A stretch of DNA of 64,000 nucleotides from Patescibacteria group bacterium (GTDB taxonomy: Bacteria > Patescibacteriota > Minisyncoccia > Phycocordibacterales > UBA2100). The position numbers and the translations under genes are program-made. This document shows, piece by piece, positions 1,269-13,875 of this stretch. Below the pieces are notes generated by a model. It was given only the letters and a program-made list of their open reading frames with translations, made no database searches and had not been told where the DNA came from. How positions within the stretch are numbered: position 1 is the stretch's first letter; each line of letters begins with the position of its first letter. The stretch spans positions 1,636 through 65,635 of the forward strand of contig JAKFXQ010000001.1 of the NCBI GenBank assembly GCA_021731295.1. Direction: 5' to 3'.

Positions 1269-2945
1269 CTACTCGGCATACTGCGGCGCTTCCCGTACGA
1301 GCCAGTCAAAAAACGGCCTCATTCCTGGCGATGCGCCTGAAAGCGTCCCTGCAGGCGCCCTCTCCAAAACGACAGCAAACGCATACTTCGGACTAGAGGC
1401 CGGCCAGAATCCAATGACCCAAGAATTCATAAACTGGTTGCGCTCGCCGACTTCTGCCGTTCCGGTCTTCGCCGCTATTTCCATCCCAGAGAGATTCAGA
1501 GCTGCCGCTGTACCGCCCTCCACCACCGCCGCACGCATGCCTTCGCGCGCAACCTCCAAATGCGCCTCGTCTATACCTATTGGGGACGCTATCGCGGGTC
1601 CTGTGGTGAGACGCGGCGTGAGCAGCTGTCCACCGGCCAATCCAGCGGTAAAGCGAACGGCCTGAAGCGGTGTTATCTGAAATCCGAACTGACCGATGGC
1701 GGTGATGAACGTATCGCCGAGTCTCCATTCATCCCCGTCGAACATCTCCGCCTTCCACTCCGGCGTTGGAATCACTCCGGCCTGCTCGCCGCCGAGCGCA
1801 ACGCCAGACAGACTACCAAGACCAAAGCGTCGTGCGTAGTCATCTATACGCGTAATGCCGAGTCCCGCCTGACCACCAAAGCCACCGCCGATAGTATAGA
1901 AATAGACGTCAGAAGAAACCGCAATCGCGCGACGCATGTCGGTATACCCGTGTGCGCGCCAGTCTCGGAACACGGACGGGCGACTGGGATTGTACGGATT
2001 AGGCACGGTAAGAGCGCCCGTCGAAAGAATCTCTTTCTGAGGACTGATGATGCCCTCTTGCAGCGCCGCAACGGCAAAAATCGGCTTCACGATAGAACCG
2101 GGCGTGTAGAGTCCTGCCACCGCGCGATTGAGAAGCGGCGTGAACGGGTCGGTATTAGCCGCATCAATCAGCGCGGAATCACCTTCACTAAATGCGTAGT
2201 TGTCGTACTCGGGGAAACTCGTGAGTGCCAGTAGCTCACCAGTACGCACATCCATGATGACAGCCGCACCACCCCGGAAGTTATTGTTCGATGCATGCGC
2301 GCTCAAGACTTCGTGCAGCTTCTGCTGTATCTTCGCGTCCACAGCTAGCGTAATGTCTGTGCCCTCTTTTGCCGGAATGACGATGTGTTCGCGCTGAATT
2401 TCACCGCGGGCATCGCGCTCGACGAGCACAGAGCCATTCTCGCCACGCAATTCGTGGTCATACACGAGCTCTGCTCCCGAGACACCTTCGTACTCTTCAT
2501 TCCACCAAATGCCTTTGTCGTCTTTTGAGGGATAGCGCACGAACCCGAGGACGTGCGCAAGCCCGGCGCCGATGTAGCGCCGCCGCGGGAACGTTTCTAC
2601 AACTTCATCCGTTGTTGACGCCGTCTGCGCATCATTCCACGCGATAGGCACACCATTTCTATCTAGAATGCGTCCGCGCGGAGCAAAGACGACTTCACGC
2701 GCGAGACGATTCTCACGCGATATCTGTGCGTACGTTTCACCTTCGACGACCTGCAGTGAGAAGGCCCGCCCCACGAAGAACAGGAGGCATATCATGAACA
2801 CAACGCCGATGCCGATGAGTGGGCCACTCGCGATAGGCCGCTCCATCCTGCCCTCGAGGCGTGCAGAATCCAGACTCGGGAGATTCGATGAATCGAGGAA
2901 AATCTCGTCAGGTTGTATCTCTACAATACGTCGTTTTCGCCACAT
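1269..2945 (-). CDS. mrdA: peptidoglycan D,D-transpeptidase (penicillin-binding protein 2)
   Basis: N-terminal TM anchor and PBP dimerisation domain; transpeptidase motifs SIVKP (SxxK), SSD (SxN) and KTGT. Immediately downstream of mreBCD. Confidence 0.85.
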   Translation of the reverse strand: MWRKRRIVEIQPDEIFLDSSNLPSLDSARLEGRMERPIASGPLIGIGVVFMICLLFFVGRAFSLQVVEGETYAQISRENRLAREVVFAPRGRILDRNGVPIAWNDAQTASTTDEVVETFPRRRYIGAGLAHVLGFVRYPSKDDKGIWWNEEYEGVSGAELVYDHELRGENGSVLVERDARGEIQREHIVIPAKEGTDITLAVDAKIQQKLHEVLSAHASNNNFRGGAAVIMDVRTGELLALTSFPEYDNYAFSEGDSALIDAANTDPFTPLLNRAVAGLYTPGSIVKPIFAVAALQEGIISPQKEILSTGALTVPNPYNPSRPSVFRDWRAHGYTDMRRAIAVSSDVYFYTIGGGFGGQAGLGITRIDDYARRFGLGSLSGVALGGEQAGVIPTPEWKAEMFDGDEWRLGDTFITAIGQFGFQITPLQAVRFTAGLAGGQLLTPRLTTGPAIASPIGIDEAHLEVAREGMRAAVVEGGTAAALNLSGMEIAAKTGTAEVGERNQFMNSWVIGFWPASSPKYAFAVVLERAPAGTLSGASPGMRPFFDWLVREAPQYAE

Positions 2946-2949
2946 GTTT

Positions 2950-3207
2950 CTATCCTAACCCATCAGTGATGAAAAGCTCTCTGCGCACCGGTTCGAGTAT
3001 CCATATGATGGCGATGGTCGCGTAGAGCATGAGTGGCATGCCCCACGCCAAACTGTTCGGAAGCCACAACACATCCGCTATGGCACCAACAAGCAGCATC
3101 TCGTACGCACGGTAACGCAGAGATACTGCCGTTGCGCCGATGAGCACTCCCCACCACGGACCAAACAGCGCACAGAGAAGCGTGGCGAGAAAAATAAACC
3201 CGCGCAT
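2950..3207 (-). CDS. mreD: rod shape-determining protein MreD (small polytopic membrane protein)
   Basis: 85-aa hydrophobic protein between mreC and mrdA in the canonical operon position. Assignment is mainly by synteny. Confidence 0.55.
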   Translation of the reverse strand: MRGFIFLATLLCALFGPWWGVLIGATAVSLRYRAYEMLLVGAIADVLWLPNSLAWGMPLMLYATIAIIWILEPVRRELFITDGLG

Positions 3208-3208
3208 A

Positions 3209-4015
3209 TCATTCGGGTATCGTCGGCAGATCGCGCGGCACGATGCGTATGTGGCGAATTGAATTCAGGCTGGTGGGTAGGGTTACATAAATGTCCGCGT
3301 ACACACTCGCCGTCGTGGATGCGATATGCGTGATGATGCCTGCGGGCAGACTGTTGAGTGATGGAATGTAGACGGGCGCACCGATAACGAGTGGCGTCTC
3401 TACCGGAACGCGCGCTGTTGCCGTGGTGAGTCCTTGCCCGATGAGCGTAAATGCGTTCGCGTCCGACGTCGCCTCCACGCGGGCTTCTGGCGCAAACACA
3501 AAGCGCACGGTCGCCGTGCGCAATCCGACATCCGCGATGGTGCCGAGAACGAATCCTTCCGACGAGAGCACCAACGCACCTTCTTCCACTCCACTCTGCC
3601 AGCCGGCGGCAACAACGAATGTCCCATATGGCGAGGCACGGAAGGACGATGCAATTGGTGCCGTGACGCTATCCACGGTTCCGGCGACACGTGCAATGTC
3701 TCTCAATTCCGCGTTCTCTCGTGCGAGAAACTGGAACAGCGCGTCGCGCTCTTTCAGGCGCGCCGCTTCATCTTCCGCAACCTGCACACGTTCGAGCAAG
3801 TCAACGCGCGTGGAGAGATCCGAAAAGGTGAGGAACGAGCGCCACGCGGTGGTCATCGAGTTGGCAAACGGCGTCAACGCGTCGCGTGCAAATGACCGCA
3901 GTTGACCACCAAGTCCCACGTCTATCATGCCGACGGCGACAACAATAATCGTGAAGAATAACGCCCGCTTCAAGGACGAGCTCTCCCTATCACTACTCCG
4001 TCGGGACCAGTTCAT
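3209..4015 (-). CDS. mreC: rod shape-determining protein MreC
   Basis: N-terminal TM segment, coiled-coil region (ARLKERDALFQFLARENAELRD), then beta-rich domain; directly downstream of mreB. Confidence 0.75.
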   Translation of the reverse strand: MNWSRRSSDRESSSLKRALFFTIIVVAVGMIDVGLGGQLRSFARDALTPFANSMTTAWRSFLTFSDLSTRVDLLERVQVAEDEAARLKERDALFQFLARENAELRDIARVAGTVDSVTAPIASSFRASPYGTFVVAAGWQSGVEEGALVLSSEGFVLGTIADVGLRTATVRFVFAPEARVEATSDANAFTLIGQGLTTATARVPVETPLVIGAPVYIPSLNSLPAGIITHIASTTASVYADIYVTLPTSLNSIRHIRIVPRDLPTIPE

Positions 4016-5033
4016 CGTCGTTCTTCACGAGTGCCTCGTTATAGGCTTCAAGATTCTCAAGAATGATTCCGGTGCCGCGCACCACGGCCGTCAACGGGTC
4101 GTTCGCCACATGCACGGGTACACCGAGTGCCGCCACGAGGAATTCAGGTAGACCGCGAATGAGCGCACCACCGCCCGCAAGATGTATCCCTTGTTGCATG
4201 ATGTCCGCGAGTATTTCCGGAGGCGCCGTTTCCAATACTTCTTTTATTGCCTCAACCAGTTCGTCTACCGAGTGTCCGATGGCATTGCGAATATCTTCGT
4301 CCGTTACGAGTATTTCGCGCGGAAGTCCGGTGACAAGATCGCGGCCGCGCGCGACATACTCCAGTCGTTCGCCGGTGCGCAGAATGGACGCAATGGCGAT
4401 TTTTACCTCCTCCGCCGTCTTCTCCCCGATGAGCATCTTCGATTCGTTTCGGATATAAGAAATGATGTCAGCGTTAAAACGGTCGCCGGCAATTTTCACG
4501 TTGCGTGAGGTGACAAGACCCCCGAGTGAAATGACCCCAATGTCTGTGGTGCCGCCGCCAATATCGACGACCATGCTTCCCTGCGGTGCGTGGACCGGCA
4601 GTTCAATGCCGATGGCCGCGGCCATGGGCTCTTCCACTACGTGCACTTCGCGCGCGCCCGCAGCTTTGGCCGCGTCACGCACCGCACGCACTTCGACGGA
4701 CGTAATGCCCGAAGGCACGCCGACCACGACGCGTGGTCCCAGGAGCTTCGAGCGTCCTGCCTGTGCCTTGGTGATGAGGTACGAGAGCATTTCCGAGGTG
4801 ATTTCGAAATCAGAAATGACACCGTCCACGACAGGCTGCACAGCGGTGATGTGCGCCGGTGTGCGTCCAAGCATTTCTTTCGCCTGTGCACCAACCGCGA
4901 CCACTTGGCCAGTCTTCTGATTCACCGCAACGATAGATGGTTCGTTGATGACGACGCCGCGCCCTTTTACATGGACGAGCGTATTCGCCGTACCCAAATC
5001 AATGCCGATGTCGTTAGAAAAGACTCCGAACAT
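3993..5033 (-). CDS. mreB: rod shape-determining actin homolog MreB
   Basis: MFGVFSNDIGIDLGTANTLVHV... classical MreB N-terminus and actin/HSP70 ATPase motifs. Start trimmed to the ATG with AAAGGA SD 5 nt upstream. Confidence 0.9.
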   Translation of the reverse strand: MFGVFSNDIGIDLGTANTLVHVKGRGVVINEPSIVAVNQKTGQVVAVGAQAKEMLGRTPAHITAVQPVVDGVISDFEITSEMLSYLITKAQAGRSKLLGPRVVVGVPSGITSVEVRAVRDAAKAAGAREVHVVEEPMAAAIGIELPVHAPQGSMVVDIGGGTTDIGVISLGGLVTSRNVKIAGDRFNADIISYIRNESKMLIGEKTAEEVKIAIASILRTGERLEYVARGRDLVTGLPREILVTDEDIRNAIGHSVDELVEAIKEVLETAPPEILADIMQQGIHLAGGGALIRGLPEFLVAALGVPVHVANDPLTAVVRGTGIILENLEAYNEALVKNDDELVPTE

Positions 5034-5067
5034 CCTGTCCTTTAATGCGCGCGCACCACTCATACCG

Positions 5068-6318
5068 TTATCGAACGCGCTCGATGAGCTGACTCTCAGG
5101 AATAAGTTGGGACGCACCGTTGTCGCGGTTGGTTACTTCCACACTACCTGCCGCAACGGTCTTCTCTGAAACGACGAGCCGCATCGGGATGCCGATTAAA
5201 TCGGCGTCAGCAAACTTTTCTCCAGCACGAACGTCGCGATCATCGTAGAGGGTGTCTATGCCGTTTTCTTTCAGGAGGTCGTAGATACGGTCTGCTTCCG
5301 CAATGAGGTCGCGGTTCCCGCCCGCAAGCGAAACCAGATGTGCCTGAAACGGCGACACTGAACGCGGCCAGAGCATGCCGTCGGAAGTGCCGAATTTCTC
5401 CGCAAGAACACCAATGAGTCGCGTTACGCCGATGCCATAGGACCCCATCCAGACCGGAATAGATGCGCCGGTCTCGTCTTTATAGGTCAGTCCGATGTCC
5501 TCTGCTTTCTGGCGCCCGAAATTAAAGATGTTGCCGACTTCTGCGGTCTTCACTTCTTCCAAATCACTCTTCTTGACCTTGAGTTCCTTCAGTGTGTCAT
5601 CGTTCATGACTTCTTGATTGATGGCGATGCCCTTTTCTCGGTTGATGTAGCAGACATCCTCGCCTGCCTCACAGACAGTCTGAAACTCGTGACTGAACTG
5701 GGTGAATGCACCGCCAGAGGCGAATGTAACGAACGTATCGTCGCCAATGCCGAGTCGCTTGAACACTTTCATGTACGCCTGCTTCATACCCTCGTACATT
5801 TTGTCGTGGTCCTCTTCGCCCGCTGCGAACGAGTACGCATCCTTCATGACGAATTCGCGTCCACGCATGATGCCGCTTTTTGCACGCATTTCGTTACGCA
5901 ACTTTGTCTGAAACTGATACACGCATGTGGGCAAATCTTTATAACTTGAAATGTATGCGCGCATCATGTCGCCAATCGGCTCTTCGTGACTCCATGCAAG
6001 GCCCACGTCCCCTCCCGCTTTCAATTCTGACTTGAACCAGATATCTACTTTCTTATCACTCCAACGGTCAGTGCGCGCCCACAGCTCTTTGCGCTGCAAG
6101 GACGTCATGATGAGTTCTTGGCTCCCAAGCGCGTCCATTTCTTCGCGGACCACCTGCTTCACACGATCGAGGACACGTAGCCCCAAAGGGAGATACGCGT
6201 AGACACCAGCCATTTCTTTGTGCACAAAGCCGGCACGAATCAGGAGTTGAGCATTTTTCGCTACCTCGTCTTTCGGTGCGGACTTCTGCGTTTTCGTGAA
6301 GAGGTGCGATTGCCGCAT
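5068..6318 (-). CDS. proS: prolyl-tRNA synthetase, short form lacking the INS editing domain
   Basis: MRQSHLF...LLIRAGFVHKEMAGVYAYLPLGLRVL matches the bacterial ProRS N-terminus and class II motifs; 416 aa. Confidence 0.85.
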   Translation of the reverse strand: MRQSHLFTKTQKSAPKDEVAKNAQLLIRAGFVHKEMAGVYAYLPLGLRVLDRVKQVVREEMDALGSQELIMTSLQRKELWARTDRWSDKKVDIWFKSELKAGGDVGLAWSHEEPIGDMMRAYISSYKDLPTCVYQFQTKLRNEMRAKSGIMRGREFVMKDAYSFAAGEEDHDKMYEGMKQAYMKVFKRLGIGDDTFVTFASGGAFTQFSHEFQTVCEAGEDVCYINREKGIAINQEVMNDDTLKELKVKKSDLEEVKTAEVGNIFNFGRQKAEDIGLTYKDETGASIPVWMGSYGIGVTRLIGVLAEKFGTSDGMLWPRSVSPFQAHLVSLAGGNRDLIAEADRIYDLLKENGIDTLYDDRDVRAGEKFADADLIGIPMRLVVSEKTVAAGSVEVTNRDNGASQLIPESQLIERVR

Positions 6319-6374
6319 TGCGCCATGATACCGGAAACAACACCTCGGTCAAAATCGGCGTCGTTGCGCGGAAA

Positions 6375-7463
6375 CTAGGTGAACAGTCGTACGATATCGT
6401 TGTACGTTACGGTAACCATAAGGACGATAATCGCGACAATGCCTACCGTATTCAGAGTAGCGACGGCGATGCGTGGCGCATCGCGGCGGATGATGGATTC
6501 GAGCGCGAGGAGGAAGAGTCTCCCGCCATCGAGCGCGGGTATCGGAATAAGATTGACGATGACTAAGTTGATGGAAATGAATCCGGCAAGGGCGAGTATG
6601 GTGCCGATGCCATGTTGCGACGCTTCACCAACGACACCGACTAACCCAACGGGCCCGACGATGCCTTCAAGTGCGGGCGCGCCCTGCAGTGCATTCTTGA
6701 GAATGTTGGCGAGTCCATCGAACACGACGAACAATTTATCAATGGCCATCGGGAACGCGATTGACATTGCTTTGCCGAGTGGCAATGGGTCGTTCTCCAC
6801 GAGGACGAGTCCCAGACCGACTGCTGGCCTACTTGCTTCGGCGGCAATGACCGAGTGCGCTGGATAAATTGTCGTCTCTAGTTCTGCCGCTCCGCGAAGC
6901 GTGCGTACTTCAATTGCCTTGCCGCCGCGCGCGCTCACGAAATCAATCACCGCTTCTGGAGTAAGCAATACTTCTTCGTCCGTATCTGCGTCTTTCACGG
7001 ACAATATCTCATCGCCGGGAATGATGTCGGAAGAGCCCGCGGGTGAACCGGGGATGACTGCGGAAACCACCAGACGCGCCTGACCCTGCGAGTCTTCTGG
7101 GGAAACCGCGTGAGGGATGCCGGCGTACAGTGCGCCCGCAAAGAGCGCCCAGCCAGCGACAAGGTTCATGGTTACTCCGGCGACAAGAATGAGCGCCTGC
7201 ACATAGCGCGGCGCTTGGGCGAAACTGCCCTTCTCTTTTGGCGCGTCAGCGTTCTCACCGAGGAGGCGCACGAATCCGCCAAACGGAATCCAGTTCAGGG
7301 TGTACTCGGTACCTTTGATGACGGCGAGACGGAAGGCCCGCGGTGGGTATCCGATACCGAATTCCTCAACCTTCACCTTAAAGAGTTTGGCGACGAAGAA
7401 ATGCCCCAGCTCATGGACTACTATAAGGAACACCAAAATCCCGACCACAAGGAGGGCTGTCAT
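6375..7463 (-). CDS. rseP: site-2 protease, M50 family RseP-like zinc metalloprotease with PDZ domain
   Basis: HELGHFFVAKLFKV (HExxH) in the first TM helix, central PDZ region, C-terminal LDGG motif region. Confidence 0.85.
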   Translation of the reverse strand: MTALLVVGILVFLIVVHELGHFFVAKLFKVKVEEFGIGYPPRAFRLAVIKGTEYTLNWIPFGGFVRLLGENADAPKEKGSFAQAPRYVQALILVAGVTMNLVAGWALFAGALYAGIPHAVSPEDSQGQARLVVSAVIPGSPAGSSDIIPGDEILSVKDADTDEEVLLTPEAVIDFVSARGGKAIEVRTLRGAAELETTIYPAHSVIAAEASRPAVGLGLVLVENDPLPLGKAMSIAFPMAIDKLFVVFDGLANILKNALQGAPALEGIVGPVGLVGVVGEASQHGIGTILALAGFISINLVIVNLIPIPALDGGRLFLLALESIIRRDAPRIAVATLNTVGIVAIIVLMVTVTYNDIVRLFT

Positions 7464-7628
7464 AGGGTCTTTAGTATACCCCGTGAGATAGCGGCAAGGC
7501 CTATGAGACGGGTATAGCCGATATTCGGAGCTCGGGCGTGTATCCTGCTATTTGACTTATGTCAATATTTGTGGTAATTTGCCGCCATCGGCCTTGAGCC
7601 GTGTTCACTACATGAGGGGATAGGTCCA

Positions 7629-7937
7629 ATGAAGACGATTATCGCTCTTGCTCTCGCCGCCACCCTTGCCGGCTGCGGTCACGCGCAGTACGCCCAAATC
7701 GACGACCCCGTGTTGGCCAAACTGACACGGGAGCGCGACGAAGCGGCGGAATATGCCTTCTGCAAAACAGGAAGCATGGTTCCGGCGGCCATTAACCCGG
7801 TCGCGTGGTACTGCGGCGCCAAAGGCGCTGCCGAAGCCATCGGTTGGGCGGTCGAGAAAGACCAGAGACTGCAAGAGTACGTTGCCAGGAAGTACCCCCA
7901 TCGCCGCGTTGCGACCCTGGTCGTCGCGCTGCCGTAA
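7629..7937 (+). CDS. hypothetical lipoprotein
   Basis: Signal peptide with lipobox LAG-C (MKTIIALALAATLAGCGH); GAGGGG SD-like motif upstream; followed by a terminator. Confidence 0.55.
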   Translation: MKTIIALALAATLAGCGHAQYAQIDDPVLAKLTRERDEAAEYAFCKTGSMVPAAINPVAWYCGAKGAAEAIGWAVEKDQRLQEYVARKYPHRRVATLVVALP

Positions 7938-7968
7938 GAAGTAGAGACTCGTACGTTCCGAGTTTCGG

Positions 7969-8004
7969 AGGGGCCACCAGACTATCGGTGGCCTCTTTGC
8001 TTTT
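7969..8004 (+). terminator. rho-independent terminator after the lipoprotein gene
   Basis: GGCCACC-agactatc-GGTGGCC followed by tctttgctttt; overlaps the frr stop on the opposite strand. Confidence 0.6.
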
Positions 8005-8554
8005 ACGACATCATCTCTGTCTCCTTTTTCTCAAAAAGTTTCTCAAGCGAATCGTTTGCGGCGTCCACACGCTTTTGCATATCTTCTTTGCCGCGAAACT
8101 TATCGTCCTCGCTCATCTCCCCTTCTTTCTCTTTGTCTTGAATATCTTTCCAGCATTCATCGCGTTCTTGTCGTACGCGCGTACGCGCCTCTTCAAGTAT
8201 TCCTTTAGCCTGCTTCACCATCTCCTGTCGGCGCTCTGTCGTTAAATCAGGAAATGAAAGACGAATACCAGATTGGTCCGGCACGGTACCGAGTCCTAAA
8301 TCTGCAGCGACAAGCGCGCGCTCAATATCTTTAATGAGACTCGCGTCAAACGGCTGCACGCGAATGGAGCGCGCATCTTCCACAGAAATGGATGCGACGT
8401 GCTTCAAGGGCTGCAGTGAGCCGTATGCGGAGACCTGCACGTTATCCAAAATGGCCGGATTCGCGCGACCTGTGCGCAATGCCTTGTACTCGCGCGAAAG
8501 CCATTCCTCTACACCTTTCAGTTGTGCTTCAAATGATTTGAAATCGTATGCCAT
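8003..8554 (-). CDS. frr: ribosome recycling factor
   Basis: MAYDFKSFEAQLKGVEEWLSREYKALRTGRANPAILDNV... typical RRF, 183 aa. ORF start trimmed from 8668 to the RRF-like ATG. Confidence 0.85.
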   Translation of the reverse strand: MAYDFKSFEAQLKGVEEWLSREYKALRTGRANPAILDNVQVSAYGSLQPLKHVASISVEDARSIRVQPFDASLIKDIERALVAADLGLGTVPDQSGIRLSFPDLTTERRQEMVKQAKGILEEARTRVRQERDECWKDIQDKEKEGEMSEDDKFRGKEDMQKRVDAANDSLEKLFEKKETEMMS

Positions 8555-8564
8555 ACAAAGAATA

Positions 8565-9218
8565 TTACATGCGTGGCGCGAGAAGCGCCACCTGTTCCAA
8601 GAGTGGCTTGAGGAGTGCGCCTTTGTCCGCAAGATACCGACGTGCACGATAGATGGCGCGGATACCATCGCGCGCGGCCGGATTGTTCACCGTGTCAGAG
8701 AGTACGACCTCTATGCCCTGCAAGAGATCTGTAGCGGCACGTATGTCGCGCTCATCGTCTTCGTCATGAGTGTACAAAGGTTTGAGTAGTTCGATTCGCG
8801 CTTCGGGTGTTGCTTTGAGGAAGGCTCGCGCGTCTCTCAGGTCGCGCTCGCCGCCAAGCGCGAGTGTCTGCAGACGTGAGCGCAGCGTCGGCAAGAGTGT
8901 CTCCGGCGACGGCACTATGAAGAAGAATGTGGCGCCCGCGCGCGGTTCTTCAAGTGTTTTCAAGAGCGCATTTTGCGCGTCAGCATAAAAGGTCGCAGAT
9001 ACCACAATGAATACCCGGCCACGTCCGCCCATGGCGCGCAGATCCGCGCGCTCTCGGAGCGCTCGGGCGTCCGCAATCTTGAACTGGCGATACTCGTGAA
9101 CAAATACATCCACACTTCCGTGCGAAATCACGCCTTCCTTCTCTAGAATCGTTCGCAGTTCCGGAAGGATGTCTGCCCCGCCAGCAATCAGATATGAGAA
9201 GCCAGGAATCACACGCAT
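8565..9218 (-). CDS. holB: DNA polymerase III delta-prime-like subunit (short, 217 aa)
   Basis: Clamp-loader AAA+-like fold with KTLEEP motif; lacks a canonical Walker A, as delta-prime does. Shorter than typical HolB. Confidence 0.55.
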   Translation of the reverse strand: MRVIPGFSYLIAGGADILPELRTILEKEGVISHGSVDVFVHEYRQFKIADARALRERADLRAMGGRGRVFIVVSATFYADAQNALLKTLEEPRAGATFFFIVPSPETLLPTLRSRLQTLALGGERDLRDARAFLKATPEARIELLKPLYTHDEDDERDIRAATDLLQGIEVVLSDTVNNPAARDGIRAIYRARRYLADKGALLKPLLEQVALLAPRM

Positions 9219-9264
9219 GGCGACAGTATACTCGTTCGTTCGTACGCGATGCTAGAATACCGGC

Positions 9265-9771
9265 ATGCGATCCCCAGATTCAGTTCAAAAAATGGCGCTC
9301 TCCGTTACCCGTGCGGTCGGCTCCCCGGCATCCATCATCTTTCACACAATACTGTTCGCCGGCAGTTTCTTTATTGCGTACGAAGGCGTCGTCGAATTTG
9401 ACCGCATGCTTCTTGTGCTGACAACTATCGTGTCACTGGAAGCAATCTACCTCGCCATCTTTATCCAGATGACTATCAACTTCCAAAGTCAGGTTATCGC
9501 CGCAGTCGAGGAGGATATCGGCGAGATCCAGGAAGACGTCGAAGAGATGACGGAAGACGTCGAAGAAATCCAGAAAGACGTGGATGAGATTCAGAAAGAC
9601 GTCGATGAGATTCAAGAAGACGTGGACGAGATGTCTGAAGACGTCGAGGAGCTTGAGGAAAGCGAGACGGAGGACGAGAAGCGAAAAAGCGAACAGCGCC
9701 AGATGCTCACCGGCATCGAAGCAACCCTGCGCCAACTCGCGCAGGATATCGAAAAACTAAAGGGGCGTTAA
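9265..9771 (+). CDS. DUF1003-like membrane protein with acidic heptad-repeat C-terminal tail
   Basis: Two TM helices (FDRMLLVLTTIVSLEAIYLAIFIQMTINFQSQ resembles the DUF1003 core); C-terminus is (E/K)DV(E/D)E(I/M)xx x7. True start may be the ATG at 9292. Confidence 0.5.
   Translation: MRSPDSVQKMALSVTRAVGSPASIIFHTILFAGSFFIAYEGVVEFDRMLLVLTTIVSLEAIYLAIFIQMTINFQSQVIAAVEEDIGEIQEDVEEMTEDVEEIQKDVDEIQKDVDEIQEDVDEMSEDVEELEESETEDEKRKSEQRQMLTGIEATLRQLAQDIEKLKGR
9512..9658 (+). repeat. 7 tandem copies of a 21-bp in-frame repeat (gaagacgtcgaagagatccag consensus)
   Basis: Direct reading of 9512-9658; each unit encodes the heptad EDVEEIQ/KDVDEIQ within the DUF1003-like gene. Confidence 0.85.
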
Positions 9772-9779
9772 GAACGCCG

Positions 9780-9959
9780 TTACGCAAGCAACGGTTGTTC
9801 GAGTTTCTGTGGCAAACCTTCAAGCTCCGCGTCAATTGCTCTGAATTCTGCGTAGAGTGCTTCGAGCGTTTTCGTCCCTTCTTCGCGAAGTGTCTGCGTA
9901 GCGCTTGCGACCTCGTCGGCCAGCGCTTCCATTTCCTTCAAATCGTTTTCGGTATCCAT
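9780..9959 (-). CDS. hypothetical small acidic protein (59 aa, MDTENDLKEMEALADEV...)
   Basis: Complete ATG..TAA ORF, just below the 60-aa track cutoff, 10 nt downstream of the coiled-coil gene on the same strand; predicted helical. Confidence 0.4.
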   Translation of the reverse strand: MDTENDLKEMEALADEVASATQTLREEGTKTLEALYAEFRAIDAELEGLPQKLEQPLLA

Positions 9960-9969
9960 ACGCTAGCTA

Positions 9970-11226
9970 TTAGAGCTTCTTATAAATCGCACTGTCTACG
10001 ACGCCGTCAAGAAATGCCACCTCCTCCTGTGCCCCCCGCAGATCCTTGATGCGGTCTCGAAACGCGGGCAATTTCTCACATAACTCTTTGAGTGCCGCCC
10101 GCCACTTAACGGAGTCCGTACCAGGATCGGCAATACCATTGTCCGTAAGATCCTGCAAGAGATTTACACCCTCCATGGAACCTCCATCGTCCATGCGCTC
10201 CGTGAGTACTTTGGCAATGTCGTCAGCTCCGACTGGAGTCTCTGGAAGTAGTTCAGCTATGATTGACTCGACATCGCGCGAGGCGCGACCAGTTTCGACA
10301 GCCGAAGATGGGGAGGCAGGTGCGCGAGTACTGCCCGGCAAAGCATCAACTGGCGGCGGTGTTGGTGCATTGTCTGGACGACGCACCATTCCCGCGTACT
10401 GCGACGCAACTCGGTCAATACCCGTTTTCACTATGGCCCTATCAGCCTCGATTCGTTCGCGGTGAGCGTATGCAGACTCGAGTTGCACCATGAGGGCCTT
10501 GATGGCTTTCTTTGAGTCTTTCGTCTGGTCTTCGAATGTTTTGCGGACACGCTCGTAACGGTCCATGTCCTCCTTCGTTGTGATGCCGCGACGCATTTGC
10601 TGCAATCGAGCCATTTTTTCGGCAGCGGTATTCGTACGGATCTCGTGATCTTTCATGACCGTCTCTAGTTTTTCAATATGCTCGTTGACTGGTCGCAGCC
10701 GCTCATCCACAACCTTCAGCGTACTCTCCATAGCCTTTGTCATTGATTCCGAGTGCATTAATCGACGTCTGTCGAGTTCGTCTCGTTGTTTGCTTACGGT
10801 CTCGTATGCATTAGTGGCGGCAAAGGCGCCGTCGCGCGCCGCGGTCATTGATGCGTCGTGCTTACTTAGGTGGCGGGAAGCGCGCCTGATGCGCATCTCG
10901 TTGATGCGATCTGAGAACGGCAGTCTCTTCCATTGATTTTCTGGGTCTTGCAACTTTTCGAGTCGTTCTTGTAGGGGCCCCCGTCCATCTTCTAGGCCGT
11001 CCAGCCTTCCATTCGTCTCGTCTGCACGAGATTTGAGAACGGCAAGGTCAGCTTCTGTAACCGATGCCGCCTTCGTGGTCTCTCTGTACCCCTTCGCTGC
11101 CGCACCCATGCGTGCGTCGAGCCCCGAAAGCAAATCGTTGGCCCATCGCTTTCCTGGCTTGCTGTCTAAACCAAGTTGTTTAGACTCATCCTTCAGTTCA
11201 GATACTTTGGGTGTCGCTTCAACCAT
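9970..11226 (-). CDS. hypothetical long coiled-coil protein (418 aa)
   Basis: Long heptad-rich helical segments and a Pro-rich linker (PDNAPTPPPVDALPGSTRAPASP); no enzymatic motif. Lies between mreB2 and the 59-aa gene. Confidence 0.5.
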   Translation of the reverse strand: MVEATPKVSELKDESKQLGLDSKPGKRWANDLLSGLDARMGAAAKGYRETTKAASVTEADLAVLKSRADETNGRLDGLEDGRGPLQERLEKLQDPENQWKRLPFSDRINEMRIRRASRHLSKHDASMTAARDGAFAATNAYETVSKQRDELDRRRLMHSESMTKAMESTLKVVDERLRPVNEHIEKLETVMKDHEIRTNTAAEKMARLQQMRRGITTKEDMDRYERVRKTFEDQTKDSKKAIKALMVQLESAYAHRERIEADRAIVKTGIDRVASQYAGMVRRPDNAPTPPPVDALPGSTRAPASPSSAVETGRASRDVESIIAELLPETPVGADDIAKVLTERMDDGGSMEGVNLLQDLTDNGIADPGTDSVKWRAALKELCEKLPAFRDRIKDLRGAQEEVAFLDGVVDSAIYKKL

Positions 11227-11308
11227 AGTTAATCGTTATCGGTAAGTGGGCGCACGCCCGTACCTCCATGATACAGAGAAGCTACCTCTTCGGAAACAGT
11301 TATACACA

Positions 11309-12319
11309 CTACCGCTTACTCATGATTGCCTTCTTGTAGACGTCGAGATGTTTGAGGGCCTCGCCGGTTCCCTTTACCACACAGTACTGTGCGTCTGCCG
11401 CGAGCTGGGCCTTTACGCCTGTGCGACGAAAGATGAGTTCAGGGAAATTGCGCAGCTGGGACGTGCCGCCCGTCATGATGATGCCGTTATCAATGATGTC
11501 AGAGGCTAGTTCTGGTGGCGTCTCTTGGAGCACGTCTTTGACCGCCTGCACCATGACGCGCAGTTCCTTGGCGACGGCCCGCACAGCTTCGTTCGTACCG
11601 AGCTCGATAGAGCGAGGAAGACCGGTCAGATAGTCACGCCCCTTCACGGTCATCGTGAGCTCTTCCTCGACTGGCACGGCAGAACCGATGGTGATTTTGA
11701 TACGTTCGGCCATCTTGTCGCCGACCGCTAGATTGAATGTTTTCTTTATATAGTCAGCTATCGCATGGTCCACTCTATTCCCCGCACACTTCACCGAGGT
11801 AGATGCCACAATGCCGCCGAGCGAAATGACGGCGACGTCCGTCGTGCCGCCACCAATGTCTACAATCATGTGTCCGCGCGCCTCGTGAATGGGGATGCCA
11901 GCGCCAATCGCGGCAAGAATCGGCTCTTTGACGACGTATGCCTGTCTGGCACCTGCCTTTGTTGCAGCTTCTACAACGGCGCGACGTTCTGTTGAAGAAA
12001 CGCCGGCTGGAACGGACACCATGACTTCTGGTCTGAAAATGTTGTATCTCCCCAGCGCTTTGCGCATGAAATAGCGCAGCATGGCTTCCGTAACGCGATA
12101 GTTTGCAATGACGCCGTCTTTCATCGGGCGATACGCTTTTATTTCATCGGGTGTGCGGCCAATCATCTCTTTCGCCTCATTCCCGATGGCAAGGATTTTG
12201 TTGTCGTCGGAGACGGCGACGACGGATGGTTCGTTCAAGACGATGCCGCGGCCGGGAACATATACCAATACTGTCGTTGTGCCTAAGTCGATGCCGAGCT
12301 TTGGAGTAAAGAATGACAC
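11309..12319 (-). CDS. mreB: second actin-homolog MreB/Mbl paralog (GTG start, leaderless)
   Basis: VSFFTPKLGIDLGTTTVLVYVPGRGIVLNEPSVVAV...; about 55% identical by eye to the mreB at 3993. Start set at the GTG placed 6 nt after a TACAAT -10 box. Confidence 0.8.
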   Translation of the reverse strand: MSFFTPKLGIDLGTTTVLVYVPGRGIVLNEPSVVAVSDDNKILAIGNEAKEMIGRTPDEIKAYRPMKDGVIANYRVTEAMLRYFMRKALGRYNIFRPEVMVSVPAGVSSTERRAVVEAATKAGARQAYVVKEPILAAIGAGIPIHEARGHMIVDIGGGTTDVAVISLGGIVASTSVKCAGNRVDHAIADYIKKTFNLAVGDKMAERIKITIGSAVPVEEELTMTVKGRDYLTGLPRSIELGTNEAVRAVAKELRVMVQAVKDVLQETPPELASDIIDNGIIMTGGTSQLRNFPELIFRRTGVKAQLAADAQYCVVKGTGEALKHLDVYKKAIMSKR

Positions 12320-12325
12320 CTGCGC

Positions 12326-12353
12326 ATTGTATCCACAGACCTGCCTTTGACAA
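12326..12353 (-). promoter_or_regulatory. sigma70-type promoter of mreB2 (TTGTCA-16-TACAAT), leaderless arrangement
   Basis: Minus strand reads ttgtcaaaggcaggtctgtggatacaatgcgcagGTG; near-consensus hexamers, start codon 6 nt after the -10. Confidence 0.55.
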
Positions 12354-12383
12354 ACAAACGGGGCGCCTCTTGGGCGCCCCGTG
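12349..12383 (-). terminator. rho-independent terminator downstream of purM
   Basis: Minus strand ACGGGGCGCC-caaga-GGCGCCCCGT followed by ttgtttgtc; the T-tail overlaps the mreB2 -35 box. Confidence 0.6.
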
Positions 12384-12424
12384 TCATTTGTGTGCACTCG
12401 TCAATATTTTCCGGCGGACGCGTG

Positions 12425-13531
12425 CTAGCGAATACTCATTGTCTCGCCAGCGAACTCGAGTCCTAGTGGCGAAATGACGACGCGCTTGCGGCCCGTCTCC
12501 ACGTAACCCGCATCCATGAGCTTGTCGCCGGTCTGGAAGCCGAGCGCGATAGCTTTCTCTGCATCGTCCGGATGCACGAAGATGGCAAAGCCCGCGCCCA
12601 TGTTGAACGTCTGGTACATCTCGCGCGTTTCAATCTTTCCCGCTTCTTGCATCATGCGGAAGATTGGTTGCTCGGGAGGCAGGCGTTCCAAGACATACGT
12701 GAACGCCTTCTCCAGACGCATGAGCTTGCGCCAGCCGTGACCGGTTACGTTCACGAGATACGAGATACGAATACCTTCGTCGAGAAGCTTCTCGATGAGC
12801 CGCGCGTAGATGCGCGTTGGCCGCAAGATGTCCTCGCCGTAGGTGAGCTTGGTATCAGGAACCGGCGTGTCGTATCGCTTCGGCAGTCTCTCGGCGATTT
12901 TGCGCGCGAGCGTGAGCCCGTTCGCGTGAATGCCATTCGACTGCGCGAAGAGAATGCGATGCCCGGGCTGGACATCGCCGCTGACTTTGCGCGTCTTCGG
13001 GAATATCTGCCCGACACACGCACACGACAGCGAGCATTCACCGGGCACGATGATGTCTCGAAGTACCGGCGTCTCACCGGGACCCCAAATCATCCGCGCG
13101 TCGTCACAGGCCGCCCGCCAACCCGTGCAGAGTTCGACCCAGCGTGGCTGGAATGCGAACCAGTCGGATTCGGCGACCTGCAGGTGCATGCTGGCATTCA
13201 CGGGCGCCGCACCAGAGGTAATGACGTCGTTCACTGCCATCGCGACCGTGTCGAACGCGTTGTGTCTCCAGAGATACTCTTTGCCACCCCACGCGAGACG
13301 TCGCGTCGCGACGTTCTTGGTGCCGAGGCCTTCATCCACGAACGCGAGGTACCGGTCAGGCAGCTCGATGAGGTGGGCACTTTCGCCACGGCTCGCGGTT
13401 ACGTCCACGACGCCAAGGCGCACGGCATTGCCCTTGGTCGCGTACGCGCAGACTTGCGCGTAGCGCTTGAACTCGTCCACCGGGTCATAGTCCACGCCGG
13501 CGTCTTTGTAGGTCAGACCTTTCGAAACCAT
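12425..13531 (-). CDS. purM: phosphoribosylformylglycinamidine cyclo-ligase-like protein (AIR synthase, PurM family)
   Basis: GLTYKDAGVDYD... (compare E. coli LSYKDAGVDIDAGN), GLGTKNV, VNDVITSGAAP, LRPTRIY, EMYQTFNMGAGF match PurM blocks. ORF trimmed to the PurM-like ATG; no other pur genes nearby. Confidence 0.7.
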   Translation of the reverse strand: MVSKGLTYKDAGVDYDPVDEFKRYAQVCAYATKGNAVRLGVVDVTASRGESAHLIELPDRYLAFVDEGLGTKNVATRRLAWGGKEYLWRHNAFDTVAMAVNDVITSGAAPVNASMHLQVAESDWFAFQPRWVELCTGWRAACDDARMIWGPGETPVLRDIIVPGECSLSCACVGQIFPKTRKVSGDVQPGHRILFAQSNGIHANGLTLARKIAERLPKRYDTPVPDTKLTYGEDILRPTRIYARLIEKLLDEGIRISYLVNVTGHGWRKLMRLEKAFTYVLERLPPEQPIFRMMQEAGKIETREMYQTFNMGAGFAIFVHPDDAEKAIALGFQTGDKLMDAGYVETGRKRVVISPLGLEFAGETMSIR

Positions 13532-13599
13532 TTGTCTGTACTCCCTATGTGACCGCCCATGCGGTCCCGCGGGCACTCTGACACCACTGCGTATGTGGG

Positions 13600-13875
13600 T
13601 CAACGCTTCGGCTCCTCGATATCTCGCGGCTTTAACTCCCACCAAAATTTTTTACTGAAGTTCTTTGAGTCGCCGCAGACACGTTTTAAGTAGTAGAGGT
13701 CTTTGGTCGGTATGCCTTCGAGTATTTTTCCCATGTGCGCCATGGAGATTGGCGGGTAGTTGTCGCGGAGGCGCTGCGCATTCAAACGCTCGCAGAAATG
13801 CTCCATCAGCTCACCCCTTTCGGTCGCCCGAACGCGCTGTTGGGGGGTCTTTAGGTGGACTTGTATGTGCTTCAT
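13600..13875 (-). CDS. hypothetical protein (91 aa from MKHIQVHLKTPQQRV...)
   Basis: ORF 13600..13950 trimmed to an internal ATG to avoid overlap with the upstream structured region; no recognisable domain. Confidence 0.35.
   Translation of the reverse strand: MKHIQVHLKTPQQRVRATERGELMEHFCERLNAQRLRDNYPPISMAHMGKILEGIPTKDLYYLKRVCGDSKNFSKKFWWELKPRDIEEPKR

Follow-up and report, generated by a model that had tools for sequence, protein, structure and literature searches.

A Conserved Second mreB Gene and a Rare Coiled-Coil Cassette in a Variable Slot Behind It in a Member of the Patescibacteria

Introduction

Does a coiled-coil gene lying directly behind a second copy of the actin homolog MreB code for a partner of that protein, or are the two merely neighbours? 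The question is raised by a stretch of 64,000 nucleotides from a Patescibacteria group bacterium (GenBank assembly GCA_021731295.1, contig JAKFXQ010000001.1, positions 1,636 to 65,635 of the forward strand), hereafter called the window. An earlier examination of its letters (the original prediction) described three genes on the same strand, coding for an MreB, a 418-amino-acid (aa) coiled-coil protein and a 59-aa acidic protein, and interpreted them as a dedicated cytoskeletal or scaffolding module, separate from the canonical mreBCD-mrdA operon at 1269–5033. All three genes were found at the coordinates claimed, on the minus strand. The first one, mreB2 (11309..12319), codes for a protein of 336 aa; the second, cc418 (9970..11226), for an orphan protein of 418 aa; and the third, s59 (9780..9959), which starts 10 nucleotides (nt) past the cc418 stop codon, for a very acidic helical protein of 59 aa. 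The elongasome cluster was also present at 1269–5033, with MreB1 (3993..5033), MreC, an 85-aa hydrophobic open reading frame (ORF) and a PBP2-type transpeptidase.

The reading that we favour, and that we consider probable, is that a conserved mreB2 is followed here by a rare, fast-evolving two-gene cassette, made of cc418 and s59, which occupies a hypervariable slot. The three genes would then be an operon by position and not a conserved MreB module.

Identity and Conservation of the Second MreB

MreB2 matched the Pfam family MreB_Mbl (PF06723) with an E-value of 3e-129 and a score of 430.8 bits (cutoff 27). It scored above the curated NCBIfam cutoffs of NF010539 (433.7 bits, cutoff 293) and TIGR00904 (417.6 bits, cutoff 365.75), which MreB1 likewise passed. 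Assignment of MreB2 to MreBH (351 bits, cutoff 515), MamK (70.5 bits, cutoff 400), BeeR (66.2 bits, cutoff 530) or FtsA (53 bits, cutoff 175.85) was rejected. Residues 5–331 aligned with the solved MreBs of Geobacillus (7ZPT), T. maritima (1JCE) and C. crescentus (4CZE), with at most three small gaps and 48–53% identity. The Geobacillus protein gave 356 bits with MreB2 and 340 bits with MreB1, and MreB2 was closer to it (53% identity) than to its own paralog MreB1 in the same window (46%). The nucleotide-binding motifs DLGT, DIGGGTTD, the E of KEP and GGT were all kept. The membrane-binding elements of MreB are a hydrophobic loop (L93/F94 in T. maritima) and a hydrophobic N-terminus. In MreB2, a pair of residues, I and F, aligned with the membrane-insertion loop of T. 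maritima, and an N-terminal MSFF motif was conserved among the orthologs. In its full-length alignment, its phosphate motifs and its loop pair, MreB2 is therefore like the known MreBs.

Thousands of proteins from Paceibacteria matched MreB2 at 77–97% identity, the best matches coming from metagenome-assembled genomes of Kaiserbacteria, Paceibacterota and Parcubacteria. A divergent actin was ruled out by the curated MreB cutoffs passed, by this conservation and by the full-length match to solved MreBs. The description of the protein as a diverged MreB in the original prediction was misleading in this respect: MreB2 does differ from MreB1, yet it is canonical and extremely conserved. In the 46 species-level loci carrying both genes, the mean pairwise identity was 80% for MreB2, 71% for MreB1 and 45.5% between the paralogs. 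MreB2 was the more conserved of the two in 45 of these 46 loci. The number of alignment columns conserved at 95% or more was 192 in MreB2 versus 141 in MreB1, and 34 positions were fixed differently between the two proteins (for example DLGTTT versus DLGTAN, KEP versus EEP, and GGT versus GGG).

The MreBs of the candidate phyla radiation (CPR) were previously found to fall into two clades, both being present in some Parcubacteria genomes, and the duplication of MreB appeared to be internal to the CPR (Takahashi et al., bioRxiv 10.1101/2020.05.13.095042). The co-occurrence of both paralogs in the window genome is in line with that work. Because each paralog was closer to its own orthologs than to the other paralog, MreB2 is, as judged from these identities, a member of the already described second MreB clade of the Patescibacteria/CPR. 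The genomic context of the two clades was not given in that paper. Four points are new in comparison: the fixed synteny of mreB2, which lies about 5 kb away from mreB1CD, the stronger conservation of the paralog located outside the operon, the putatively leaderless promoter and the apparently hypervariable slot downstream.

The surroundings of MreB2 were compared in 80 species-representative loci (L004–L083). A conserved chromosomal frame was observed, with the order def-fmt, (up91), mreB2, [slot], DUF948 on the opposite strand, holB, frr and, further on, mreB1-mreC-PBP2. The spacing of approximately 5 kb between mreB2 and mreB1CD was constant in these loci. MreB2 differs from the MreB of an mreCD-PBP2 operon in that its gene lies outside this operon, where MreB1 sits: mreB2 was bounded by its own terminator and predicted promoter, and the elongasome genes followed MreB1. 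Bacillus subtilis possesses the paralogs MreB, Mbl and MreBH, of which only one is linked to mreCD. The likeness with the present genome resides in the existence of several canonical paralogs, a single one of which is mreCD-linked; MreB2 differs from MreBH itself, since it falls below the cutoff of the MreBH model. The fact that the paralog outside the elongasome cluster is the more constrained one, with about 80% identity across the whole class, and that it keeps a fixed position argues for an essential role in these tiny cells.

Variability of the Slot Behind mreB2

The situation immediately downstream of mreB2 was very different from this constancy. No cc418 homolog could be detected behind mreB2 in any of the 80 species-level loci, using tblastn and a hidden Markov model (HMM) of the family. 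Behind mreB2, the next conserved gene (DUF948 or holB) followed after less than 500 nt in 47 of the 72 informative loci and after at least 1 kb in only 12 of them. Where close relatives had a filled slot, its content varied. In L092, with an MreB2 97% identical to that of the window, the slot (1272–2798) held a 405-aa protein and an acidic 85-aa protein. L002 (MreB2 93% identical) carried proteins of 664 aa, 459 aa and 77 aa, the last one acidic, in a slot extending from 5032 to 8767, and L003 (91%) a 276-aa protein followed by an RNB ribonuclease, at 3812–7387. When the slot proteins of these three loci were compared with cc418 and s59, neither BLAST nor hmmsearch nor hhalign (probability below 1%) revealed a relation. 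In more distant relatives the filled slots contained, by reading of the sequences, apparent IS200/RAYT-like transposases (L028 and L059), ABC transporters, membrane proteins, a sigma factor and methyltransferases; among all this cargo, the RNB domain of L003 was the only assignment with Pfam support. By these comparisons the slot downstream of mreB2, at 9780–11308 in the window, is apparently hypervariable, lineages whose MreB2 is 91–98% identical carrying non-homologous genes. Its fast turnover between near-identical lineages makes it a convenient place for lineage-specific accessory genes.

The original prediction had called for a check of gene order across relatives and had named an unconserved order as refuting it; by this standard of its own it fails. 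The order seen in the window, mreB2, cc, s59, DUF948, holB and frr, was kept only in one sister lineage (L001, L089–L091). The identities to the window were 43% for the cc protein, 64–66% for s59, 66% for holB, 83% for frr and 92% for MreB1. As far as can be judged from these alignments, the comparison shows that the cassette is real and under selection, and that cc418 is the fastest-evolving gene locally.

These observations bear directly on the proposal of a dedicated module, according to which MreB2, the coiled-coil protein and the acidic protein belong together and the coiled-coil rod anchors, bundles or positions MreB2 filaments, apart from the rod complex. The retention of the mreB2-cc-s59 order in the sister lineage, despite 57% divergence of the cc protein, speaks for such a link. 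However, MreB2 is 77–97% conserved in hundreds of genomes without any cc418 homolog, most of which have an empty slot. We consider a dedicated module unlikely, and further points on both sides are given below with the protein family and with the transcript.

Another possibility is that all the large and small pairs found in the slot, namely cc418 with s59, the 405- and 85-aa proteins of L092 and the 459- and 77-aa proteins of L002, belong to one ancient and extremely fast-evolving family of MreB2 partners, orthologous beyond recognition. In this clade, MreB2 would then have been accompanied at all times by a changeable pair of this kind. The recurrence of similar sizes, composition and order in the same slot, in lineages whose MreB2 is 93–98% identical, would agree with it, and so would the local speed of cc418 (43% identity compared to 83% for frr). 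We nevertheless regard such a family as very improbable. The profile comparisons stayed below 1% probability, and BLAST and hmmsearch gave nothing. Under vertical descent, it is implausible that identity would drop from 43% to below detection over nearly equal genomic distances. In L003 and most other species, the slot was empty or its layout was different. Finally, true distant homologs of cc418, at 18–21% identity, were still detectable and were located elsewhere in their genomes.

The Coiled-Coil Protein and Its Small Acidic Partner

The AlphaFold2 model of cc418 had a mean pLDDT (predicted local distance difference test) of 82. Three long helices, spanning residues 26–93, 103–212 and 218–281, make up a predicted rod (residues 26–281, positions 10384–11151) folded as a long antiparallel coiled coil. 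A hydrophobic periodicity of 3.5 residues was observed in helix 1 (p~0.01) and helix 2 (p~0.004), and was marginal in helix 3 (p~0.09). The rod is followed by a linker (residues 283–317, positions 10276–10380) predicted to be disordered, with eight prolines, and by a small, acidic, helical C-terminal domain (residues 318–418, positions 9973–10275) modelled with six helices. The earlier description of a heptad-rich coiled coil with a Pro-rich linker was thus borne out. No transmembrane segment and no signal-like hydrophobic stretch was seen in cc418.

Scans of cc418 against Pfam, NCBIfam, PHROG and PADLOC gave no significant match, only coiled-coil noise (E of 4e-4 or higher for PADLOC and PHROG), and the same databases returned nothing other than such noise for s59 and the other slot proteins. 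The fold search found no significant or informative structural neighbour, either for the whole model or for the C-terminal domain. With its three long heptad-periodic helices, cc418 is like the arms of SMC/JetC, spectrin-like repeats and regulators of peptidoglycan hydrolases such as Cg1735, to which weak Foldseek or HMM matches were seen. An assignment to SMC, JetC or LmuB was rejected: the matches covered coiled-coil segments only, with 12–24 bits against cutoffs of several hundred, and an ATPase domain was lacking. With respect to the dedicated module, the succession of a rod, a flexible linker and a small head is a possible filament-adaptor architecture, as modelled; against it, the sequence of cc418 matched no known family of MreB partners, and its fold had no significant counterpart among solved structures.

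When 1.84 billion cluster representatives were searched exhaustively with a profile, the cc418 family amounted to five representatives. The public protein collections searched amount to about 15 billion sequences. A word-indexed search and a profile search with the five members added no representative beyond these five, and no match was found in the GTDB species representatives, the JGI metagenomes or IMG/VR. The family consists of the window protein, of P0002 (43% identity), and of P0123, P0124 and P0125, which are 18–21% identical and share the same architecture. Between the window gene and P0002, the proportion of nonsynonymous differences (pN) was 0.40 and that of synonymous differences (pS) 0.81, the synonymous sites being saturated, for a pN/pS ratio of 0.49; conserved blocks were located in the rod. 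Because pN is 0.40 compared to a saturated pS, the coiled-coil ORF appears to be under purifying selection, as had been supposed.

The protein s59 contains 15 D+E compared to 5 K+R. An ortholog of the same length, 59 aa, with 64–66% identity, was present in the sister lineage (L089 and L090) behind the P0002-type gene. This conserved ortholog rules out a spurious ORF and confirms that the unannotated small protein is a real gene. Behind each of the other family members, 2–5 nt away, lay an acidic ORF of 68–77 aa, with 17–18 D+E versus 2–5 K+R, and these small partners shared a weak common motif, R-x-x-D-[AE]-[EQ]..GL. A rod-linker-head protein of 418–459 aa followed within 10 nt by an acidic ORF of 59–77 aa was therefore found in all five representatives with readable downstream sequence. 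Because an acidic ORF stands behind every family member, the coiled-coil protein and the small acidic protein constitute a conserved two-gene cassette. From its modelled anatomy, we infer that cc418 is an elongated coiled-coil scaffold of the cytoplasm, to which an acidic head is tethered, and that its acidic partner binds it. Together, cc418 and s59 represent a new orphan family.

The contigs of P0123, P0124 and P0125 carried no MreB and each possessed the small acidic ORF. The distant homologs of cc418 thus keep their acidic partner and not a linkage to MreB, which weighs against the dedicated module. Taken together, the absence of the coiled-coil gene from the 80 loci, the short gaps in most of them and the location of the distant homologs do not sustain the module put forward in the original prediction.

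The neighbourhood of the distant cassettes had features of its own. They were followed by a convergent peptidase gene, coding for a LysM-Peptidase_M23 protein in L085 (9636–10709) and in L088 (1869–3068). The corresponding gene of L084, at 3734–4078 on the strand opposite to the cassette, was recognized from its translation as an M23-like fragment of the C-terminal part. A ComM-like gene lay upstream of the cassette in L084 and L085. The peptidase neighbour may be inherited synteny or may hint at a cell-wall context.

In effector-chaperone and toxin-immunity pairs, a large gene is typically coupled to a small acidic one. The cassette could then serve in conflict or as an accessory element, for example as an effector-chaperone, toxin-immunity, anti-phage or host-interaction pair that was horizontally acquired at a hot spot and has no role in cell architecture. 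In addition to its tightly coupled layout, the extremely patchy distribution of the cassette fits this view, as does its GC content at third codon positions (GC3), which was 55% for cc418 and 53% for s59 compared to about 62–63% for most neighbouring genes. The slot itself is hypervariable and held, by sequence reading, the IS200/RAYT-like transposases of L028 and L059, and a lineage-specific purM-like gene with a GC3 of 75% also landed beside mreB2. On the other side, no match to a PADLOC or PHROG family was obtained beyond coiled-coil noise, no enzymatic or toxin-like domain, signal peptide or transmembrane segment was recognized, no direct or inverted repeats or integrase were found flanking the cassette, and the viral contigs of IMG/VR yielded no matches. 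A conflict element is in our opinion quite unlikely.

Promoter and Start of mreB2

Immediately upstream of mreB2 stands the intrinsic terminator of the purM-like gene (12382..12358, minus strand), which marks the 5' boundary of the unit. It consists of a 10-bp stem with nine G-C pairs, followed by TTTGTTTGT, its T-tail extending into the -35 box of the next promoter. Its predicted fold reached -29.9 kcal/mol (z=-4.68), and none of 200 shuffled sequences folded as well. The predicted sigma-70-type promoter of mreB2 (12353..12326) has the structure TTGTCA (12353–12348), a 16-nt spacer and TACAAT (12331–12326), with 10 of 12 consensus matches, and ends 6 nt before the GTG codon. Two such promoter-like sites were found in 4 kb when 1.6 were expected, a number that alone is not above chance. 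The promoter is credible because it is positioned directly after a strong terminator and because the same -10 box is found ahead of most orthologs.

The GTG codon at 12319 lies inside a longer mechanical ORF (11309..12397). It was retained as the start of mreB2 because the N-termini of the orthologs begin at the same point (VSFFTPKL in the window, MSFF[ST]PKL or MAFSF.PKL in the orthologs). The in-frame upstream start at 12397 was rejected; the extension would cross the terminator and the promoter, and it is absent from the orthologs. The position of the promoter after the terminator and the alignment of the orthologs both agree with the initial claim that mreB2 possesses its own promoter and a GTG start.

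Is the transcript leaderless? Upstream sequence was available for 82 relatives, and most of them (approximately 55, by reading of the listing) had a box resembling TACAAT or TATAAT 6–14 nt ahead of the start codon. Between the -10 box and the start, the mreB2 orthologs had C-rich spacers devoid of a Shine-Dalgarno motif. The same layout of a terminator plus a promoter was seen in the sister lineage L092, with TTGTAA, 17 nt, TACAAT, 8 nt and ATG. This comparison with relatives (conserved -10 spacing and no Shine-Dalgarno motif) supports a leaderless or near-leaderless mreB2 transcript, which is plausible as predicted from sequence and as first proposed. Transcription would start at, or at most 2 nt from, the G of the GTG at 12319.

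This arrangement was not restricted to mreB2. Among 73 crudely called genes of the window, a TANNNT ending exactly 6 nt before the start codon was present in 11, compared to 0.5 expected (22-fold), and Shine-Dalgarno-like 4-mers were only mildly enriched in the same set. The leaderless layout is, on this count, seemingly a genome-wide habit and nothing special to the mreB2 operon. Leaderless transcripts have been described for Actinobacteria and Deinococcus-Thermus, and GUG can act as a leaderless start in mycobacteria. The likeness lies in a -10 box 6–9 nt from the start, in the lack of a Shine-Dalgarno motif and in the large number of first genes of window operons that appear to be concerned. 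At mreB2 the putative leaderless start is a GTG, whereas most orthologs use ATG. As a side observation, the 46-nt intergenic region shared by the divergent genes holB (minus strand) and DUF948 (plus strand), at 9219–9264, contains such a box for each of them (TATACT, 6 nt, ATG and TAGAAT, 6 nt, ATG, respectively).

Predicted Extent of the Transcript

The spacer between mreB2 and cc418 (11227..11308, 82 nt) showed no terminator-like site in a consensus scan and no stable fold (z=-0.05), and in the window it had neither a leaderless-type -10 box nor a Shine-Dalgarno motif. Because a terminator or a stable structure is missing from this spacer, the three genes can form one transcript, as predicted. 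Because no promoter in the window genome belongs to the cassette itself, cc418 and s59 would most likely be reached by read-through from the mreB2 promoter. By eye, a -10 box was visible at the equivalent place in the sister lineage (TAGTAT, 6 nt, ATG) and ahead of the coiled-coil gene in L084 (TATACT, 6 nt, ATG). At the other end, a weak terminator-like hairpin (9778..9764, minus strand) lies partly inside the end of DUF948, which is a convergent gene. It is formed by GGCGTT-CTT-AACGCC, with six pairs, and is followed by CCTTTAGTTTTT; its z of -1.6 gives it weak support, and the minimum-energy structure favours another pairing. The 3' end of the unit is tentatively placed there.

Concerning the dedicated module, the presence of the genes on the same strand with no terminator between them, and the tie of the expression of the promoterless window cassette to mreB2, are in its favour. 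The leaderless -10 box belonging to the cc gene itself, in both the sister lineage and L084, is a point against it.

Proposed Organization of the Locus

We propose the following organization, in which a single transcription unit combines two parts that evolved independently of each other. MreB2 would be an actin homolog of the canonical, membrane-binding kind, very strongly constrained and encoded at a fixed chromosomal position. Its gene would have a sigma-70 promoter to itself and give a leaderless or near-leaderless transcript, like many first genes in this genome. The slot behind it would be occupied, only in the window lineage and in one sister lineage, by a cassette coding for a coiled-coil protein of about 420 aa, in which a flexible linker joins the rod to a small acidic head, and for a tightly coupled small acidic helical protein. 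In the window genome, the cassette would most likely be transcribed by read-through from the mreB2 promoter. In this organization, cc418 and s59 probably act as a self-contained cytoplasmic structural pair, the function of which would be independent of MreB2. In this case, the position of a gene next to an actin homolog is no evidence that its product is a cytoskeletal partner, and a leaderless promoter appears to be a habit of the genome; both points have corrective value.

Several observations weigh against this proposal. In two lineages, the place of the cassette immediately after mreB2 was maintained during the divergence of cc418 to 43% identity, which is compatible with a functional link. 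Pairs of a large helical and a small acidic protein end the same slot in L092 (405 and 85 aa) and in L002 (459 and 77 aa, behind the 664-aa ORF), and these recurrent pairs could correspond to cryptic homology or to a recurrent functional theme tied to MreB2. The absence of homologs was judged by sequence methods and not by structure. Of the contigs carrying the distant homologs, L085 is 14.8 kb long and free of MreB; the other two measure 3.3–4.1 kb, and an MreB gene some kilobases away is possible for them.

If the recurrent pairs were tied to MreB2, the slot might be a site of diversification for rapidly replaced, lineage-specific MreB2 adaptors (cc418 with s59, the 405- and 85-aa pair of L092, the 459- and 77-aa pair of L002). 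Such adaptors would link a constant, actin-like filament to changing tasks within the cell or in host contact in these ultra-small episymbionts. We find this scenario quite improbable, and continue to prefer a cassette that sits behind mreB2 by position.

Other Genes Around mreB2

No Rfam element was matched in the region. On the upstream side, the up91 gene (window 13600–13875, minus strand) codes for a 91-aa protein that was found, on the same strand and directly upstream of mreB2, in about 26 relatives, with 52–69% identity. Scans of up91 against Pfam, NCBIfam and PHROG gave no match. Among the neighbours of MreB2, up91 is conserved more widely than the coiled-coil gene is.

Between up91 and mreB2, the window contains the purM-like gene (AIR synthase family; 12425–13540, minus strand), with a GC3 of 75% compared to about 62% for most neighbours. 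It reached 165.6 bits with the NCBIfam purM model, under the cutoff of 236, and matched a PHROG purM family annotated as an auxiliary metabolic gene (9e-29). It was absent from the position adjacent to mreB2 in 80 of the 80 species-level relatives, and a fragment of it was present in the sister lineage L094. This gene is likely a recent horizontal acquisition.

On the downstream side, the DUF948 gene (9265–9771, plus strand) includes seven tandem copies of a 21-nt unit at 9488–9671. The unit encodes an acidic repeat of seven residues, roughly (I/M)-x-(E/K)-D-V-(D/E)-E.

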